DNA of 64,000 nucleotides from Escherichia coli (GTDB taxonomy: Bacteria > Pseudomonadota > Gammaproteobacteria > Enterobacterales > Enterobacteriaceae), in the NCBI RefSeq assembly GCF_002854065.1, contig NZ_CP024147.1; one strand, written 5' to 3'. The notes under the pieces are model-generated. The model did not search any database, was not told where the DNA came from, and worked only from the letters and a program-made list of their open reading frames with translations. This document shows positions 14,920 to 42,200 of the stretch, piece after piece. The position numbers and the translations under genes are program-made. The first letter of the stretch is position 1, and each line of letters starts with the position of its first letter.

Positions 14920-15092
14920 AAAGCAGTCTCCTGAACAGGTTGCACCATTTTAGTGCATTATAGCTTTTTACGGATAAAAAGCGCGAAGCATCAGAGAATT
15001 GACGGAGAAAAAAGCCCATGCAGAGATGGGCTGAAAGTTTCCACGGCAACTAAATCCCGGCGTTGTTGCGCCGGGTAGTACAACTTCAACTA

Positions 15093-16502
15093 TTAGACGC
15101 TGTAGTACAGCTCAAACTCTACCGGATGCGGAGTCATACGCACGCGGTCATCTTCTTCGCGACGCAGAGCGATGTACGCATCGATCGCTTCATCCGTGAA
15201 CACGCCACCGGCTTTCAGGAACTCGCGGTCCAGATCCAGCTCGTTCAGTGCTTCTTCCAGAGAGCCTGCAACTTGTGGGATCTCTTTCGCTTCTTCTGGC
15301 GGCAGGTCATACAGGTTTTTGTCCATGGCTTCGCCCGGATGGATCTTGTTCTTGATGCCATCAAGACCGGCCATCAGCAGGGCAGCAAAGCACAGGTACG
15401 GGTTAGCCGCCGGGTCCGGGAAACGCACTTCGATACGACGCGCTTTCGGAGAAGAAACCACCGGAATACGGATAGACGCAGAACGGTTGCGTGCAGAGTA
15501 AGCCAGCATTACCGGTGCTTCGTAGCCCGGGACCAGACGCTTATAAGAGTTGGTGGTCGGGTTTGCCAGGGCGTTAATCGCTTTAGCGTGTTTGATTACG
15601 CCGCCAATGTAGTACAGCGCCTGCTCAGACAGACCTGCGTATTTGTCGCCTGCGAACAGGTTAACGCCGTTTTTAGACAGAGACATGTGGCAGTGCATAC
15701 CGGAGCCGTTATCACCGAACATCGGTTTTGGCATAAAGGTCGCGGTTTTACCGAAGCGGTGCGCTACGTTGTGCACAACATATTTGTAGATCTGAATTTC
15801 GTCAGCTTTTTTGGTCATGGTATTGAAGCGGGTAGCCACTTCGTTCTGACCAGCAGTCGCTACTTCGTGGTGATGGGCTTCAACCACCAGACCCATCTGT
15901 TCCATCACCAGACACATTTCAGAACGAATATCCTGAGCAGAGTCTACCGGCGGAACCGGGAAGTAACCGCCTTTCACTGCCGGACGGTGACCTTTGTTAC
16001 CACCTTCATATTGGGTGGAGGAGTTCCATGCGCCTTCGATATCGTCGATAGCAACATGAGAACCGGAGATAGATGATCCGAAACGGATGTCATCGAACAG
16101 GAAGAATTCAGGTTCTGGCCCGAACAGTACGGTGTCGGCAATGCCAGTAGAACGCAGGTAATCTTCAGCGCGCTTCGCGATGGAGCGCGGGTCACGGTCA
16201 TAGCCTTGCAGGGTGCCAGGTTCAAGGATGTCGCAACGGATAATCAGGGTGGAGTCGGCGAAGAACGGGTCAATCACTGCGGTGGATGCGTCTGGCATCA
16301 GCACCATGTCGGATTCGTTAATGCCTTTCCAGCCGCCAATCGAGGAGCCGTCAAACATTTTGCCTTCTTCGAAGAATTCAGCATTCACCTGATGAGCAGG
16401 GATAGTGACGTGCTGTTCTTTACCTTTGGTATCGGTGAAGCGCAAATCAACAAACTTCACTTCGTGCTCGTTCAGCATCGTCAGTACGTGTTCAGCGGAC
16501 AT
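15093..16502 (-). CDS. glnA: Glutamine synthetase
   Basis: 469-aa [28 protein letters not shown]-terminus and adenylylation-site region. Confidence 0.98.
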
Positions 16503-16582
16503 ACTTTAACTCTCCTGGATTGGTCATTGTCGTCGTGGTAACGAAATCTGCAATTATTTTGGCCGTGTCGCCGTAAAAAAGA

Positions 16583-16604
16583 TAAAGCGAAAACTGTGCC
16601 AACT
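16583..16604 (-). promoter_or_regulatory. glnAp2 sigma-54 promoter (-24 GG / -12 GC)
   Basis: Reverse strand reads TTGGCACAGTTTTCGCTTTATC, a sigma-54 -24/-12 consensus. Confidence 0.8.
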
Positions 16605-16654
16605 TTTAAATTGCCCCTAAAAGGCGTTATCATGCTTAACATCGTGCAAAAGGG

Positions 16655-16725
16655 CTGCACCATGATGTGAATGTTGCACCAATATAGTGCTTCAATGGAA
16701 ACATTAAGCACCATATTGGTGCAAT
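16655..16725. promoter_or_regulatory. NtrC enhancer sites upstream of glnA
   Basis: Repeated TGCACC-N-GGTGCA-like dyads (tgcaccatgatg, tgcaccaatatagtgc, agcaccatattggtgca). Confidence 0.75.
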
Positions 16726-16874
16726 GACCTTTGGATAACCCTTTTTATGCTCCGTGAAAGCGATCACAAAGGGACTCTGCAATACTTGTTTGCGGAGGAT
16801 GTTTGTGATCCTGTTTTGTAGTGCGATTAATCCGTGTACAATAACGCGCTATTTCTAATGCCTGAGGCAAAGTT

Positions 16875-18698
16875 GTGATCGAAAAATTGCGTAATATCGC
16901 CATCATCGCGCACGTAGACCATGGTAAAACCACCCTGGTAGACAAGCTGCTCCAACAATCCGGTACGTTCGACTCTCGTGCCGAAACCCAAGAGCGCGTG
17001 ATGGACTCCAACGATTTGGAGAAAGAGCGTGGGATTACCATCCTCGCGAAAAACACCGCTATCAAATGGAATGATTACCGTATCAACATCGTTGATACCC
17101 CGGGGCACGCCGACTTCGGTGGTGAAGTTGAACGTGTAATGTCCATGGTAGACTCAGTGCTGCTGGTGGTTGACGCATTTGACGGCCCGATGCCGCAAAC
17201 GCGCTTCGTAACCAAAAAAGCGTTTGCTTACGGCCTGAAGCCGATTGTTGTTATCAACAAAGTTGACCGCCCTGGCGCGCGTCCTGATTGGGTTGTGGAT
17301 CAGGTATTCGATCTGTTCGTTAACCTCGACGCGACCGACGAGCAGCTGGACTTCCCGATCGTTTACGCTTCTGCGCTGAACGGTATCGCGGGTCTGGACC
17401 ACGAAGATATGGCGGAAGACATGACCCCGCTGTATCAGGCGATTGTTGACCACGTTCCTGCGCCGGACGTTGACCTTGACGGTCCGTTCCAGATGCAGAT
17501 TTCTCAGCTCGATTACAACAGCTATGTTGGCGTTATCGGCATTGGCCGCATCAAGCGCGGTAAAGTGAAGCCGAACCAGCAGGTTACTATCATCGATAGC
17601 GAAGGCAAAACCCGCAACGCGAAAGTCGGTAAAGTGCTGGGCCACCTCGGTCTGGAACGTATCGAAACCGATCTGGCGGAAGCTGGCGATATCGTAGCGA
17701 TCACGGGCCTGGGCGAACTGAATATTTCTGATACCGTTTGCGACACGCAAAATGTGGAAGCGCTGCCGGCACTCTCCGTTGATGAGCCGACCGTTTCTAT
17801 GTTCTTCTGCGTTAACACCTCGCCGTTCTGCGGTAAAGAAGGTAAGTTCGTAACGTCTCGTCAGATCCTGGATCGTCTGAACAAAGAACTGGTACACAAC
17901 GTTGCGCTGCGCGTAGAAGAAACCGAAGACGCCGATGCGTTCCGCGTTTCTGGTCGTGGCGAACTGCACCTGTCTGTTCTTATCGAAAACATGCGTCGTG
18001 AAGGTTTTGAACTGGCGGTATCCCGTCCGAAAGTAATCTTCCGTGAAATCGACGGTCGTAAACAAGAGCCTTACGAAAACGTGACGCTGGACGTTGAAGA
18101 ACAGCATCAGGGTTCTGTAATGCAGGCGCTGGGCGAACGTAAAGGCGACCTGAAAAACATGAATCCAGACGGTAAAGGCCGCGTACGTCTCGACTACGTG
18201 ATCCCAAGCCGTGGTCTGATTGGCTTCCGTTCTGAGTTCATGACCATGACTTCCGGTACTGGTCTGCTGTACTCCACCTTCAGCCACTACGACGACGTAC
18301 GTCCGGGTGAAGTGGGTCAGCGTCAGAACGGTGTACTGATCTCTAACGGTCAGGGTAAAGCGGTAGCGTTCGCGCTGTTCGGTCTGCAGGATCGCGGTAA
18401 GCTGTTCCTCGGTCACGGTGCAGAAGTTTACGAAGGTCAGATTATCGGTATTCATAGCCGCTCTAACGACCTGACTGTAAACTGCCTGACCGGTAAGAAA
18501 CTGACCAACATGCGTGCTTCCGGTACTGACGAAGCCGTTGTTCTGGTTCCGCCTATCCGCATGACTCTGGAACAAGCTCTGGAGTTCATCGATGATGACG
18601 AACTGGTAGAAGTGACTCCGACCTCTATCCGTATTCGTAAACGTCACCTGACGGAAAACGATCGTCGTCGCGCCAACCGCGCACCGAAAGACGATTAA
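16875..18698 (+). CDS. typA: Ribosome-associated translational GTPase BipA/TypA
   Basis: 607-aa ORF with [10 protein letters not shown]1 motif, EF-G-like domains; GTG start. Confidence 0.97.
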
Positions 18699-18715
18699 TT
18701 TCGTTTTTTAGTCAT

Positions 18716-18748
18716 AAAAAACCTGCCAGCGATGGCAGGTTTTTTTTT
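18716..18748 (+). terminator. Rho-independent terminator of typA
   Basis: Hairpin acctgccagcgatggcaggt followed by T9. Confidence 0.8.
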
Positions 18749-18914
18749 GCCTGTCGTGAGCGCACACCAATGCGAGTATCTCCCTTATAAGTCTGTGGTT
18801 ACGTCAATAGAGAGCTTTGTCACAATTATCTGCAAAGTCATACGCCGTTAATTGCTTTCTTTTTTGGCGTAAGCGTAAGATGCTTCATCTGGTTTAAACC
18901 AAAAGGATTAAACA

Positions 18915-19550
18915 ATGGCGGAGAATCAATCCACCGTAGAAAATGCAAAAGAGAAACTGGATCGGTGGTTGAAAGATGGCATCACCACGCCGGGTGGAAA
19001 ACTCCCTTCAGAAAGAGAGCTGGGAGAACTGCTGGGCATTAAACGTATGACGCTGCGCCAGGCGTTGTTGAACCTCGAGGCAGAATCCAAAATCTTCCGT
19101 AAGGATCGTAAGGGGTGGTTCGTGACCCAGCCGCGATTTAATTACAGTCCGGAGCTGTCGGCGAGCTTTCAGCGGGCCGCAATTGAGCAAGGGCGAGAGC
19201 CTTCCTGGGGGTTTACCGAGAAAAACCGTACCAGCGATATTCCCGAGACGCTCGCGCCACTGATTGCAGTGACGCCATCAACTGAACTCTATCGCATCAC
19301 CGGCTGGGGGGCGCTGGAAGGACATAAAGTTTTCTATCACGAAACATATATTAATCCTGAAGTTGCTCCGGGCTTTATTGAACAACTTGAAAACCACTCA
19401 TTTTCTGCAGTCTGGGAAAAGTGCTACCAAAAAGAGACGGTAGTAAAAAAATTGATTTTCAAACCCGTCAGAATGCCGGGCGATATCAGCAAGTATCTTG
19501 GCGGTTCTGCGGGTATGCCAGCGATATTAATTGAAAAGCATCGCGCCGAC
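18915..19550 (+). pseudogene. yihL: yihL (GntR/UTRA-type regulator), 3'-truncated by IS1
   Basis: ORF reads through into IS1 left end (last 8 codons GDAANLLI are IS1-encoded). Confidence 0.8.
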
Positions 19551-19605
19551 GGTGATGCTGCCAACTTACTGATTTAGTGTATGATGGTGTCTTTGAGGTG
19601 CTCCA

Positions 19606-19881
19606 GTGGCTTCTGTTTCTATCAGCTGTCCCTCCTGTTCAGCTACTGACGGGGTGGTGCGTAACGGCAAAAGCACTGCCGGACATCAGCGCTATCTCTG
19701 CTCTCACTGCCGTAAAACATGGCAACTGCAGTTCACTTACACCGCTTCTCAACCCGGTACGCACCAGAAAATCATTGATATGGCCATGAATGGCGTTGGA
19801 TGCCGGGCAACCGCCCGCATTATGGGCGTTGGCCTCAACACGATTTTCCGCCATTTAAAAAACTCAGGCCGCAGTCGGTAA
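19606..19881 (+). CDS. insA: IS1 InsA
   Basis: Identical 91-aa product. Confidence 0.95.
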
Positions 19882-20303
19882 CCTCGCGCATACAGCCGGG
19901 CAGTGACGTCATCGTCTGCGCGGAAATGGACGAACAGTGGGGATACGTCGGGGCTAAATCGCGCCAGCGCTGGCTGTTTTACGCGTATGACAGGCTCCGG
20001 AAGACGGTTGTTGCGCACGTATTCGGTGAACGCACTATGGCGACGCTGGGGCGTCTTATGAGCCTGCTGTCACCCTTTGACGTGGTGATATGGATGACGG
20101 ATGGCTGGCCGCTGTATGAATCCCGCCTGAAGGGAAAGCTGCACGTAATCAGCAAGCGATATACGCAGCGAATTGAGCGGCATAACCTGAATCTGAGGCA
20201 GCACCTGGCACGGCTGGGACGGAAGTCGCTGTCGTTCTCAAAATCGGTGGAGCTGCATGACAAAGTCATCGGGCATTATCTGAACATAAAACACTATCAA
20301 TAA
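19800..20303 (+). CDS. insB: IS1 InsB
   Basis: Identical 167-aa product. Confidence 0.93.
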
Positions 20304-20318
20304 GTTGGAGTCATTACC

Positions 20319-21306
20319 GCCGGGGTATTGGGGCATCCTCTTTGTCTGGGCGCTATTTGGCGTTACTTGCGACATGATGAACTGGCCGGTCTTACTCAAG
20401 TCGGTAAGTCGATTGGGCAATAGCGAACAACAAGGTCGGTTGTTTGGCTTCTTCGAAACAGGGCGTGGCATTGTCGATACCGTGGTGGCATTTTCTGCGT
20501 TGGCAGTATTTACCTGGTTTGGCAGTGGCTTATTGGGTTTTAAAGCAGGCATCTGGTTCTATTCCCTTATTGTGATTGCCGTAGGCATTATTATTTTCTT
20601 TGTCCTGAATGACAAAGAAGAGGCACCGTCCGTTGAGGTGAAAAAAGAAGACGGAGCATCGCAAAACACCAGTATGACCTCGGTGCTGAAAGACAAAACT
20701 ATCTGGCTTATCGCTTTCAACGTCTTCTTCGTTTACGCGGTTTACTGTGGCCTGACATTCTTCATTCCATTCCTGAAAAACATCTATCTATTGCCCGTTG
20801 CGCTGGTGGGGGCTTACGGCATCATTAACCAATACTGTCTGAAAATGATTGGTGGACCGATTGGTGGCATGATTTCAGATAAGATCCTGAAATCGCCGAG
20901 TAAATATCTATGCTACACCTTTATCATCAGTACCGCTGCGCTCGTACTGTTGATTATGCTGCCGCACGAAAGTATGCCGGTCTATTTAGGGATGGCATGT
21001 ACGCTGGGCTTTGGCGCGATAGTCTTTACACAGCGAGCCGTATTTTTTGCACCTATCGGCGAAGCAAAAATTGCTGAAAATAAAACAGGCGCGGTGATGG
21101 CGTTGGGTAGCTTTATTGGTTACGCCCCGGCGATGTTCTGCTTTAGTCTGTATGGCTACATTCTGGATTTAAATCCGGGGATTATTGGCTACAAAATCGT
21201 GTTTGGCATTATGGCCTGCTTCGCATTCTGTGGTGCGGTGGTTTCCGTAATGCTGGTTAAGCGTATTAGCCAACGTAAGAAAGAGATGCTGGCGGCTGAA
21301 GCTTAA
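20319..21306 (+). pseudogene. yihN: MFS transporter YihN, 5'-truncated (C-terminal ~330 codons only)
   Basis: Multi-TM ORF begins directly at IS1 right end with no native start; matches C-terminal part of yihN. Confidence 0.75.
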
Positions 21307-21427
21307 TTAATGGCCGGATGTGCTTAATCCGGCCAAAAAAAATCCGCTGAATCCCCAGCGGATTTTTCGAAGTTTCAATTTCAGGATACTTCTTGCTCGG
21401 CAACTACCAGTTCAACATTCTCTTCAC

Positions 21428-21790
21428 TTAACAACTGGCAGAAAGAATTGGGAGGCGGGGCATCAGTAAAAAAAGCCCTGACATTCCGTGCATTGCCAAC
21501 GCTACCGCGCCGTGAAAAACATCGCCTGCTCCAGTCGTATCAACCACATTGACAGAAAATGCATCCTGTTGACACAAATGATCATCTTTAATCCACAATG
21601 AATCTTCAGAACCCAGCGTGACATACACTTTACCCGCAGTTTGTGTCGTTGCCTGGTACAAACCTTCTTCAGGTGACTGCAGGCCAGTCATGCGTTTCCG
21701 CCCTGGCGTTGAGAACACGGCGTGATCAGTAAGCGCGACAAGTGGATAAATATCCTGCGGTGTCATATCGTCGCTGGTTATCGAAACTCG
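21428..21790 (-). pseudogene. Remnant of pfkB-family sugar kinase (yihV-like sulfofructose kinase)
   Basis: Reverse-strand ORF contains VDTTGAGDVFHGA pfkB signature but lacks N-terminal half and has a non-native C-terminus. Confidence 0.55.
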
Positions 21791-21955
21791 TTGGCAATTT
21801 ACACCTGAATCTTAACCATTCATCTATTGCGAAAAAGCCAGTGAAATTACTCTGCTTTTTCGCAATCAGCATCACAAGATTACCCTTATTGCCACATAGC
21901 CAAACCCATCCTTTCCCGCTACAGTTAATTTCTTGTGGCGCGAAAGGAGGCAAAA

Positions 21956-36993: not shown

Positions 36994-37008
36994 GGTAATG
37001 ACTCCAAC

Positions 37009-37512
37009 TTATTGATAGTGTTTTATGTTCAGATAATGCCCGATGACTTTGTCATGCAGCTCCACCGATTTTGAGAACGACAGCGACTTCCGTCCCAGCC
37101 GTGCCAGGTGCTGCCTCAGATTCAGGTTATGCCGCTCAATTCGCTGCGTATATCGCTTGCTGATTACGTGCAGCTTTCCCTTCAGGCGGGATTCATACAG
37201 CGGCCAGCCATCCGTCATCCATATCACCACGTCAAAGGGTGACAGCAGGCTCATAAGACGCCCCAGCGTCGCCATAGTGCGTTCACCGAATACGTGCGCA
37301 ACAACCGTCTTCCGGAGCCTGTCATACGCGTAAAACAGCCAGCGCTGGCGCGATTTAGCCCCGACGTATCCCCACTGTTCGTCCATTTCCGCGCAGACGA
37401 TGACGTCACTGCCCGGCTGTATGCGCGAGGTTACCGACTGCGGCCTGAGTTTTTTAAATGGCGGAAAATCGTGTTGAGGCCAACGCCCATAATGCGGGCG
37501 GTTGCCCGGCAT
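37009..37512 (-). CDS. insB: IS1 InsB
   Basis: Identical 167-aa product on minus strand. Confidence 0.93.
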
Positions 37513-37706
37513 CCAACGCCATTCATGGCCATATCAATGATTTTCTGGTGCGTACCGGGTTGAGAAGCGGTGTAAGTGAACTGCAGTTGCCATGTTTTAC
37601 GGCAGTGAGAGCAGAGATAGCGCTGATGTCCGGCAGTGCTTTTGCCGTTACGCACCACCCCGTCAGTAGCTGAACAGGAGGGACAGCTGATAGAAACAGA
37701 AGCCAC
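37431..37706 (-). CDS. insA: IS1 InsA
   Basis: Identical 91-aa product on minus strand. Confidence 0.95.
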
Positions 37707-37761
37707 TGGAGCACCTCAAAAACACCATCATACACTAAATCAGTAAGTTGGCAGCATCACC

Positions 37762-39063
37762 ATACGTCCCGAGGTAAATATTAAAGTTCTCCATATCCAT
37801 CACATTAGCGAACTGATAAGACGCATGAATGGTGTGAATGGTGTACGTCCCTTCATCATCAATCCAGCAGTCGTTATCACAAACTACACCGCTGAATTCA
37901 TCAATCTTATTGTGCGCGTAGATATAACCGAGCTCGAAACGTTTCCACAGCGCGTTAATCCCGGCAGTGAAATCTTTCTCATTATTAGCATCTAAATAGG
38001 CGGTATTAAGATTAACCACAATGCCATTGTCCGGATCCGTTTTCAGGCCGTTCCAGGTCATGCTCATACCATAGCCGGTACGATCGGACTGATCGACAAA
38101 ATTACCCTTGCTATCGGTATAACCATAAGCATTATTTACCACGTTCGCTTCCATCGCTGCGGAAACGGTGAATTCTTCCGTCGGCGACCAGGCAATTACT
38201 GGGCGCAGATAAGCAACATTTTTCTGCTGCTCCATATCGCGTCCATGATAATTACCGTCATTATATAAAGATGTTCCGTCTTCAAGTAACGTATTTAATT
38301 CAAAATACCAGTTATCGAGTTGTTTGCTGACGAGGAAATTACCGCCAGCGTTAGAGCGCCCGCGGCCCTCTTTCATCATATAGATATAACCGCTGCCATC
38401 GTCATAAAGATCGTTCGCAGTATTACCGGAATGTTCAACAAAGGTATCCTGATTCAGCGGGAACATATCGTAGGCTTCAAAACGGCCTACTTTGACCTTC
38501 CAGTCGTTTTCTTTGCCAAAGAAGAATACCGCATCATCGATATTTACTGAACCGTGCATATCACCCAGCGGTTGTGCGGAGAACCCGGCGAAATAACCGT
38601 TGTCCATCTTTCGCATACCGTCAAAACCTAACAGAATACGACCATTGAGATTCCACTGTTCATTAGTGGGATCGCTATTCACATCAGCGTTGGTCATTGC
38701 CAGCAGGCCATGATTACTTTCCGCATCCATATTAAATTCTACGTCGCCGTAGATTTTTAAATCGCCATAACCTGAAAGCAAAAGATTAGGTGAGGTGGCA
38801 TTTTTCTTTGCAGATTCCGTCGTTGCCTGTCCATTTACCGGCGTATTGCCCTGAGCGGCCTTAATTTCGCGGATCTCAGCGGCTTGTTGTGTCTGCAGCT
38901 GTTTAACCTGGCTCTCTGCTTTTGCTGCCCGCATTTCTGCCGCTTCCAGGCGTTCTTCCAGCAATGCCATGCGTTGTTCCAGCGTTAAATGCTGTGTTTT
39001 TGCCATACCGGTACTACATGCCAATAATAAACCGATGGCTAAAGATAATGTCGATTTTTTCAT
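37762..39063 (-). pseudogene. LamB/ScrY-family carbohydrate porin with N-terminal coiled-coil extension, 3'-truncated by IS1
   Basis: Signal peptide MKKSTLSLAIGLLLA, coiled-coil LEQRMALLEERLEAAEMRAAKAESQVKQLQ, then aromatic-rich beta-barrel-like sequence; ORF runs into IS1 (terminal GDAANLLI is IS1-encoded). Confidence 0.6.
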
Positions 39064-39694: not shown

Positions 39695-39749
39695 GGTGAT
39701 GCTGCCAACTTACTGATTTAGTGTATGATGGTGTTTTTGAGGTGCTCCA

Positions 39750-40025
39750 GTGGCTTCTGTTTCTATCAGCTGTCCCTCCTGTTCAGCTACTGACGGGGTG
39801 GTGCGTAACGGCAAAAGCACTGCCGGACATCAGCGCTATCTCTGCTCTCACTGCCGTAAAACATGGCAACTGCAGTTCACTTACACCGCTTCTCAACCCG
39901 GTACGCACCAGAAAATCATTGATATGGCCATGAATGGCGTTGGATGCCGGGCAACCGCCCGCATTATGGGCGTTGGCCTCAACACGATTTTCCGCCATTT
40001 AAAAAACTCAGGCCGCAGTCGGTAA
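39750..40025 (+). CDS. insA: IS1 InsA
   Basis: Identical 91-aa product. Confidence 0.95.
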
Positions 40026-40447
40026 CCTCGCGCATACAGCCGGGCAGTGACGTCATCGTCTGCGCGGAAATGGACGAACAGTGGGGATACGTCGGGGCTA
40101 AATCGCGCCAGCGCTGGCTGTTTTACGCGTATGACAGGCTCCGGAAGACGGTTGTTGCGCACGTATTCGGTGAACGCACTATGGCGACGCTGGGGCGTCT
40201 TATGAGCCTGCTGTCACCCTTTGACGTGGTGATATGGATGACGGATGGCTGGCCGCTGTATGAATCCCGCCTGAAGGGAAAGCTGCACGTAATCAGCAAG
40301 CGATATACGCAGCGAATTGAGCGGCATAACCTGAATCTGAGGCAGCACCTGGCACGGCTGGGACGGAAGTCGCTGTCGTTCTCAAAATCGGTGGAGCTGC
40401 ATGACAAAGTCATCGGGCATTATCTGAACATAAAACACTATCAATAA
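39944..40447 (+). CDS. insB: IS1 InsB
   Basis: Identical 167-aa product. Confidence 0.93.
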
Positions 40448-40604
40448 GTTGGAGTCATTACCGGGACGTATTACTCCATTCTGGATAGCGACGGCGATAA
40501 AAAACACGGTGATGATACTGATGACCGTTACGGCGCACGCGTTCGCTTTAAATACTTCTTCTGATGAAGGCGCGGTGCTGGATATTTTCCGGCACCGCAA
40601 CTCA

Positions 40605-41753: not shown

Positions 41754-41789
41754 GTTCTGTGTTCCTGTAAATTCGGTGTTGTCGGATGC

Positions 41790-42195
41790 ACGACCCGTAG
41801 GCCGGATAAGGCGCTCGTGCCGCATCCGGCAATCAATGCCTGATGCGACGCTGTCGCGTCTTATCAGGCCTACAACTATTGCCGACCTGTAGGCCGGATA
41901 AGGCACTTGTGCCGCATCCGGCAATCAATGCCTGATGCGACGCTGTTGCGTCTTATCAGGCCTACAACTGTTGCCGACCTGTAGGCCGGATAAGGCACTT
42001 GTGCCGCATCCGGCAATCAATGCCTGATGCGACGCTGTCGCGTCTTATCAGGCCTACAACTATTGCCGACCTGTAGGCCGGATAAGGCACTTGTGCCGCA
42101 TCCGGCAATCAATGCCTGATGCGATGTCGCGTCTTATCAGGCCTACAACTGTTGCCGACCTGTAGGCCGGATAAGGCACTTGTGCCGCATCCGGC
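41790..42195. repeat. BIME/REP tandem array in rhaD-rhaA intergenic region
   Basis: About 4.5 tandem units containing gtaggccggataaggcacttgtgccgcatccggc and gcctgatgcgacgctgtcgcgtcttatcaggcc palindromes. Confidence 0.9.
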
Positions 42196-42200
42196 AGTGT

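Follow-up and report, generated by a model that had tools for sequence, protein, structure and literature searches.

An IS1 element between truncated yihL and yihN genes in an IS1-rich Escherichia coli lineage marks a 1,442-bp deletion with reused IS1 target sites at both endpoints

The 64,000-nucleotide stretch of Escherichia coli DNA that we analysed (the window) carries an intact IS1 element lodged between a yihL gene that lacks its 3' end and a yihN gene that lacks its 5' end, the DNA between the two having been lost. Both endpoints of the deletion are independent IS1 insertion points in other strains, as is expected of the distal target of an IS1 adjacent deletion. We consider the chances somewhat better than even that intramolecular replicative transposition of IS1 (adjacent deletion) removed these 1,442 bp of the yihL-yihM-yihN region. 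The allele is genuine and belongs to one IS1-rich E. coli lineage. That IS1 drives gene loss of this kind is already known as a textbook phenomenon, and both flanks are already pseudogenes in the RefSeq/PGAP annotation.

BLAST of the window against K-12 MG1655 gave two collinear blocks, one on each side of IS1. On the left K-12 4056613-4061082 corresponds to window 15081-19550, and on the right K-12 4062525-4063551 corresponds to window 20319-21346. The joints are base-exact with respect to the K-12 sequence, since homology stops at 19550 and restarts at 20319, which are the ends of IS1. Absent from the window is K-12 4061083-4062524, a segment that comprises 75 nt of yihL, a 7-nt spacer, the whole of yihM, the yihM-yihN spacer and 278 nt of yihN. 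The features of the deletion allele are as follows.

18915-19550, plus strand: yihL', codons 1-212 of 236 of a GntR/UTRA regulator gene, cut at K-12 4061082.
18915-19577, plus strand: 220-aa ORF composed of YihL residues 1-212 plus 8 IS1-encoded residues (GDAANLLI), with a TAG stop at 19575-19577.
19542-19550, no strand assigned: CGCGCCGAC, the 9 bp at the IS1 left end and a recurrent IS1 insertion point in yihL.
20319-20327, no strand assigned: GCCGGGGTA, the 9 bp at the IS1 right end and the target duplication of independent yihN IS1 insertions elsewhere.
20319-21306, plus strand: 'yihN remnant of an MFS transporter gene of 421 codons, from the third base of codon 93 to the stop.

An earlier note on this DNA had called yihL truncated by about 25 codons and reading into IS1, and had placed the resumption of yihN about 90 codons from its start. 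Alignment to K-12, which that note had proposed, bore out both calls with endpoints at K-12 4061082 and 4062525. The yihL' gene lacks its last 24 codons, and 'yihN begins at yihN nucleotide 279 with 328 full codons left. Neither gene is complete and yihM is not adjacent; the absence of yihM, which the note had also claimed, extends to the entire 64-kb window, in which BLAST comparison with K-12 found no yihM match elsewhere. The claimed lack of a target duplication likewise held, as the 9-mers beside IS1 differ, CGCGCCGAC on the left and GCCGGGGTA on the right, and there is no 9-bp repeat.

The damage to the gene products is extensive. The UTRA (effector-binding) domain of YihL is 24 residues short at its end, yihM is lost entirely, and YihN is without its first 92 residues and its start signals. 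As yihL, yihM and yihN are all damaged, the whole cluster is inactivated. What remains is well conserved: all 212 of the YihL' residues are identical to those of K-12 YihL, and the 'yihN remnant has three amino-acid differences from K-12. The 220-aa YihL'-IS1 product matches Pfam GntR and UTRA and the product of the 'yihN remnant matches Pfam MFS_1. PGAP annotates the two genes as pseudogenes, yihL' with a "missing C-terminus" and 'yihN with a "missing N-terminus". In NCBIfam, YihL was most similar to PhnR, with a score below the cut-off, and the YihN remnant to PgtP-type transporters. Our literature search for the function of the yihLMN cluster found no paper that addresses it. The allele thus documents the loss of a cryptic cluster encoding a GntR regulator, a TIM-barrel sugar-phosphate isomerase-like enzyme and an MFS transporter.

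The element at the junction has the features listed here.

19551-20318, plus strand: intact IS1 of 768 bp, with IRL at 19551-19573 and IRR at 20296-20318.
19606-19881, plus strand: insA, an ORF of IS1 encoding 91 aa.
19800-20303, plus strand: insB', which overlaps insA and is joined to it by a -1 frameshift at the A6C motif.
19857-19863, plus strand: A6C frameshift motif, within TTAAAAAAC at 19855-19863.

The length of about 768 bp, the imperfect terminal repeats of about 23 bp and the insA/insB' frameshift organisation are those of the IS1 family. In the 23-bp terminal inverted repeats, IRL (GGTGATGCTGCCAACTTACTGAT) and the reverse complement of IRR (GGTAATGACTCCAACTTATTGAT) agree at 18 of 23 positions. 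Only the 9-bp target duplication of a simple IS1 insertion is lacking at 19551-20318, and we attribute this to the associated deletion: the copy is not a simple insertion, yet it is still IS1. The orthologous IS1 copy is annotated by PGAP as an IS1B-family transposase with a programmed frameshift, and Pfam Zn_ribbon_InsA, HTH_Tnp_IS1 and DDE_Tnp_IS1 match orthologous copies. The element is 99.87% identical to the three other IS1 copies of the window, from which it is one base apart (T41C). This T-to-C change at window 19591 (IS1 position 41) lies just downstream of the -10 hexamer of the IRL promoter (TATGAT, 19580-19585). It is private, being found neither in the three other window copies nor in the orthologous copy of related genomes, and is either a recent mutation or a sequencing error.

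In an adjacent deletion IS1 would first have entered one of two preferred sites, either GCCGGGGTA (yihN codons 93-95) or CGCGCCGAC (yihL codons 210-212). In a later step, transposase would have linked the ends of IS1 to the remaining site on that chromosome. The intervening DNA would then have left as a circle carrying one IS1 copy, and the chromosome would have retained the other copy between two unrelated 9-mers. We infer both the order of these events and the use of transposition rather than RecA-dependent recombination. Several observations support the scheme. The deletion abuts both termini of a complete IS1 to the base; there is no 9-bp duplication, and both endpoints are genuine IS1 targets.

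Adjacent deletions promoted by IS1 through intramolecular replicative transposition were reportedly described by Turlan and Chandler in 1995 with IS1/Tn9. The yihL-yihN allele resembles the IS1/Tn9 deletions in that it starts at an IS1 terminus, leaves the element intact, lacks direct repeats and has a distal end that is an IS1 target. It differs in being a natural chromosomal allele, for which we infer transposase dependence and direction. Turlan & Chandler 1995 is the work cited for IS1 adjacent deletions in PMC12428005, and section 5.2.1 of PMC9330008 reviews IS1 adjacent deletion by intramolecular transposition.

The two endpoints are sites that IS1 has used repeatedly. Strain ET734 (NZ_CP100922.1) has the structure GCCGGGGTA|IS1X2|GCCGGGGTA in yihN, a complete simple insertion with a perfect 9-bp duplication. 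Its IS1X2 occupies the same yihN nucleotide in the same orientation and gives the same right junction, IRR|GCCGGGGTA, as in the window. However, ET734 keeps yihL, yihM and yihN codons 1-95 intact, its element is only 93.75% identical to that of the window, and its flanks are a different haplotype with a K-12-type downstream cluster. These differences in element, flanks and structure indicate that the ET734 insertion is an independent event and not an ancestor of the window allele. The 95-aa YihN stub that is the product of an ET734-type insertion served as a look-up query for further yihN-site junctions. An IS1 junction at the GCCGGGGTA site is present in another flanking haplotype (L021), IS1 lies there in the opposite orientation in L019 and L022, and several contigs of yet other haplotypes stop exactly at this site. 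Hence, the yihN GCCGGGGTA site has received IS1 in at least three other backgrounds and in both orientations (loci L017 and L019-L022). A look-up with the K-12-type 310-aa YihN remnant returned mostly frameshifted assemblies.

The yihL endpoint gave a parallel picture. The junction CGCGCCGAC|GGTGATGCTGCC is identical in two other chromosomal backgrounds, one represented by L013/L040 and the other by L009/L038 and L014/L041. Segment by segment over about 10 kb, these backgrounds diverge from the window by 1.2-2.4%. The haplotype of L040 is K-12-like up to within 24 bp of the yihL|IS1 junction, and L038 and L041 have an ET734-like background. The IS1 variants at the yihL junction differ from that of the window: L009 shows 6 additional differences over 433 bp, and L013 has C127. 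The junctions in other backgrounds would most simply be independent insertions. In these drafts, which include GCA_009762055.1, GCA_054664195.1 and the source of ERZ28658641, the contigs stop within IS1 or, in one case, run into an IS26/Tn3 region, short of the right side of the yihL insertion. Both 9-mers, CGCGCCGAC and GCCGGGGTA, have served IS1 independently in three or more divergent E. coli backgrounds, with different IS1 variants, and are GC-rich within AT-rich surroundings.

Reuse at both ends raises a further possibility, which we entertain only tentatively and think rather unlikely: that the yihL-yihN deletion is a quasi-deterministic IS1 rearrangement between nucleotide-precise hot spots that may have arisen more than once. 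If this is true, the drafts having the yihL|IS1 junction (K-12-like and ET734-like) could carry the same deletion, and yihL/yihN would be a natural site pair for studying IS1 target choice.

The strongest competitor of adjacent deletion, to which we give a substantial probability a little short of even, begins with two IS1 insertions in like orientation at the yihL and yihN sites, both of which would have generated a 9-bp target duplication. RecA-dependent recombination between the two copies would then have excised yihM together with one IS1. This route predicts the flanks that are observed, the left half of one duplication (CGCGCCGAC) and the right half of another (GCCGGGGTA). Moreover, both sites have been used independently by IS1 in other strains in the orientation that recombination needs, and since both are independent targets in an IS1-rich genome, two insertions are plausible. 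The end product of adjacent deletion and of RecA-dependent recombination between direct IS1 copies would be the same, and the sequence fits the two equally well. PMC11708052 gives recombination between identical ISs and adjacent deletion as frequent causes of missing duplications, and according to that paper and PMC9330008 section 5.2.1 an absent duplication is equally expected from homologous recombination of direct IS1 copies. The earlier note's attribution to IS1-mediated adjacent deletion remains valid and favoured, but the missing duplication that it had taken as typical of that process fits direct-copy recombination equally. The window structure is like the direct-copy recombination deletions described in the LTEE analysis (PMC11708052) in being compatible with a single IS between halves of two target duplications. 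It is unlike them in that no two-copy intermediate or IS mosaic is demonstrable. A recombinant mosaic could not be visible here, because the IS1 copies of the genome are virtually identical (at most 1 base apart within the window).

Against recombination stands first the count of events, three compared with two. Furthermore, IS1 at both sites bracketing yihM was found in none of the 5,426 complete E. coli genomes. A junction megablast of these genomes matched only the two genomes with the full allele and the unrelated single-site insertion of ET734, and found no genome of the same lineage having IS1 at one site only. The opposite-orientation yihN junction was absent from the complete genomes, and the exact pattern of IRR followed by CGCGCCGAC and the yihL continuation, which a simple yihL insertion would give, had 0 matches in metagenome contigs. 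Finally, recombination between pre-existing IS1 copies cannot be the source of a duplication in the dsbA region of the same genome, which has a single IS1 at its joint. As this duplication is beyond recombination, transposase-driven rearrangement is active in the genome in any case.

Adjacent deletion is preferred because all four IS1 copies in the window are without target duplications and three of them lie at very recent rearrangements, which are absent from the near-identical strain 100416. To produce these recent rearrangements by recombination alone would take more insertions and more steps than IS1 transposition chemistry requires, an argument from parsimony and not a proof. The set of duplication-less IS1 copies within 64 kb is a compact natural illustration of IS1 intramolecular transposition, and the genome is a possible test bed for separating transposase-driven from RecA-driven IS deletions.

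In the dsbA region a 559-bp direct duplication has copies at 838-1396 and 2165-2723, with a single IS1 (1397-2164) exactly at the joint. The duplicated segment spans dsbA nucleotide 127 to 58 bp past the stop, the two copies are one base apart and dsbA is intact at the left copy. This IS1 lacks a target duplication. Neither strain 100416 nor any of the 5,426 complete E. coli genomes has the duplication with its IS1, a structure reminiscent of the "IS at the centre of a duplication" events discussed in PMC11708052. In the frv region an inverted IS1 pair, 36994-37761 (minus strand) and 39695-40462 (plus strand), surrounds a 1,933-bp segment that is inverted relative to 100416. The 9-mer GGGACGTAT is single-copy in 100416; in the window it is present as an inverted duplicate, ATACGTCCC at 37762-37770 and GGGACGTAT at 40463-40471. 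A 4,124-bp deletion of frvR'-frvX-frvB-frvA' adjoins the IS1 at 36994-37761, and strain 100416 instead has a different IS1 beside a porin gene that has lost 646 bp at its 5' end. Formally the frv inversion could have come from recombination of inverted copies, and it supports transposition by parsimony and not as proof. Elsewhere in the window, in the rhaD-rhaA intergenic region (41787-42196), BLAST matches to K-12 4094306-4094718 that overlap themselves in steps of about 92 bp indicate an array of tandem repeats.

Two other explanations can be dismissed as very improbable. The first, ordinary IS1 transposition into the joint of an older IS-independent yihL-yihN deletion, has a precedent of sorts in the IS-free microhomology deletions about 1 kb downstream in the same genome; we reject it because ordinary insertion leaves a 9-bp direct duplication, of which there is none, and because it makes a coincidence of the fact that both deletion edges fall on the insertion bases used by IS1 in other strains. 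Equally improbable is a false assembly join at a collapsed IS1 repeat. IS1 is present in many copies, at which short-read contigs break, but each junction lies on unbroken sequence in two complete genomes that were sequenced independently and in a 4.74-Mb contig, all three carriers have the same downstream scars and the flanks are collinear with the K-12 gene order.

Among the 5,426 complete E. coli genomes, only NZ_CP182139.1 and NZ_CM128593.1 gave a single unbroken match across each of the two junctions. These carriers are strains CUWW06 (wastewater, Thailand) and 100416 (stool, Gambia). The allele is also on the 4.74-Mb NCBI contig, GCA_900449015.1, which is 99.95% identical to the window over 20.7 kb. 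The window and strain 100416 are separated by 12 substitutions in 34.8 kb. As an exact protein, the 220-aa YihL'-IS1 ORF was found in 85 index blocks of public assemblies and on 48 contigs, which the sources name Escherichia coli. Each of the two complete carrier genomes has at least 40 IS1 match pieces, compared with a median of about 10-11 over all genomes.

IS-driven pseudogenisation and loss of catabolic clusters are features of IS1-expanded Escherichia and Shigella lineages. The window lineage is like these in having many near-identical IS1 copies, with several IS1-associated rearrangements within 64 kb, and in having lost a cryptic sugar-type cluster and a neighbouring cluster. Unlike Shigella, it is labelled Escherichia coli by the sources. 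For one IS1-expanded E. coli clade the allele provides a clean marker of lineage. Its significance beyond bookkeeping is slight, the modest extra being the pair of precisely reused IS1 target sites.

We also considered a general enrichment of IS1 in the yihLMN region, which proved to be unsupported. About 40 of the 5,426 complete genomes have IS1 in yihLMN, against about 37 expected by a rough estimate from a median of about 10 copies per genome. Only exact-site reuse stands out in the distribution. Other IS1-family insertions in yihN lie after about nt 903 and about nt 1089 and, in reverse orientation, just before codon 112; the genomes that have them are L035 (GCA_022732515.1, 1-98), L005 (NZ_LR882052.1) and L006 (NZ_CM151386.1).

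The earlier note had described the IS1 junction as fusing yihL to yihN, and had raised outward IS1 promoter activity as a possible driver of the yihN remnant. The first description is correct as physical juxtaposition. No fusion protein results: translation from yihL terminates after 8 codons of IS1, and relative to insB' the yihN remnant lies in the +1 frame. With the frames differing in this way and the stop so close, we rejected both an InsB-YihN and a YihL-YihN translational fusion. The promoter proposal found no support in the sequence. In a consensus promoter scan the sole match on the plus strand was IS1's own IRL promoter, and the scan detected no outward-facing promoter at the IS1 right end. 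According to PMC9330008, IS1 fusion promoters require a suitable -10 in the flanking DNA. At 16-18 nt beyond the IRR hexamer TTGGAG the sequence reads ATTGGG, TTGGGG or TGGGGC, and none of these is -10-like. An outward or hybrid IS1 promoter was therefore rejected, and any transcription of the yihN remnant would be expected to be read-through from insAB'.

Downstream of yihN the K-12 gene order does not apply. The lineage had a different yihN-yihX cluster, now reduced to fragments, and we rejected K-12 synteny (the ompL-yihV sulfoquinovose cluster) because the fragments belong to that different cluster. The remains are as follows.

21347-21888, minus strand: scar of a second gene loss, with fragments of a non-K-12 yihN-yihX cluster, compared with NZ_CM151386.1.
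About 21380-21502, minus strand: 3' fragment of a DeoR regulator gene, a PGAP pseudogene.
About 21490-21768, minus strand: internal fragment of a PfkB sugar kinase gene, a PGAP pseudogene.

In NZ_CM151386.1 the intact cluster encodes a DeoR regulator, a PfkB kinase, a yihU-like reductase, an aldolase, a Zn-dependent dehydrogenase, two MFS transporters and an epimerase. The scar arose from two IS-free deletions, one of 860 bp (TGCCAA microhomology, about 21494-21499) and one of 7,272 bp (joint at about 21770-21772), and also has a 4-bp loss. The typA-yihX interval has been reduced from about 13 kb to about 3 kb.

The window also contains an intact ORF of 615 aa (25218-27065, plus strand) in a low-GC (33-44%) islet between fabY and yiiE. 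The protein had no Pfam, NCBIfam or PDB sequence match, and a literature search found no paper that describes it. Of the 5,426 complete E. coli genomes, 1,061 carry 80% or more of the gene, annotated there as "hypothetical protein" or "transposase" and often split. The family has an invariant CX5R P-loop, GCKSAKDRT (window about 26742-26768). This fits the CKSXKDR motif, which is that of SopB/IpgD and the mammalian inositol 4-phosphatases (PMC3091653). The AlphaFold model, which is confident (pLDDT 85, pTM 0.85), had as its best solved-structure match Salmonella SopB (8jzl_A, E 6e-7), followed by Legionella phosphoinositide phosphatases and Sac1. Judging from the model and the P-loop, the 615-aa protein is possibly an uncharacterised phosphoinositide phosphatase.
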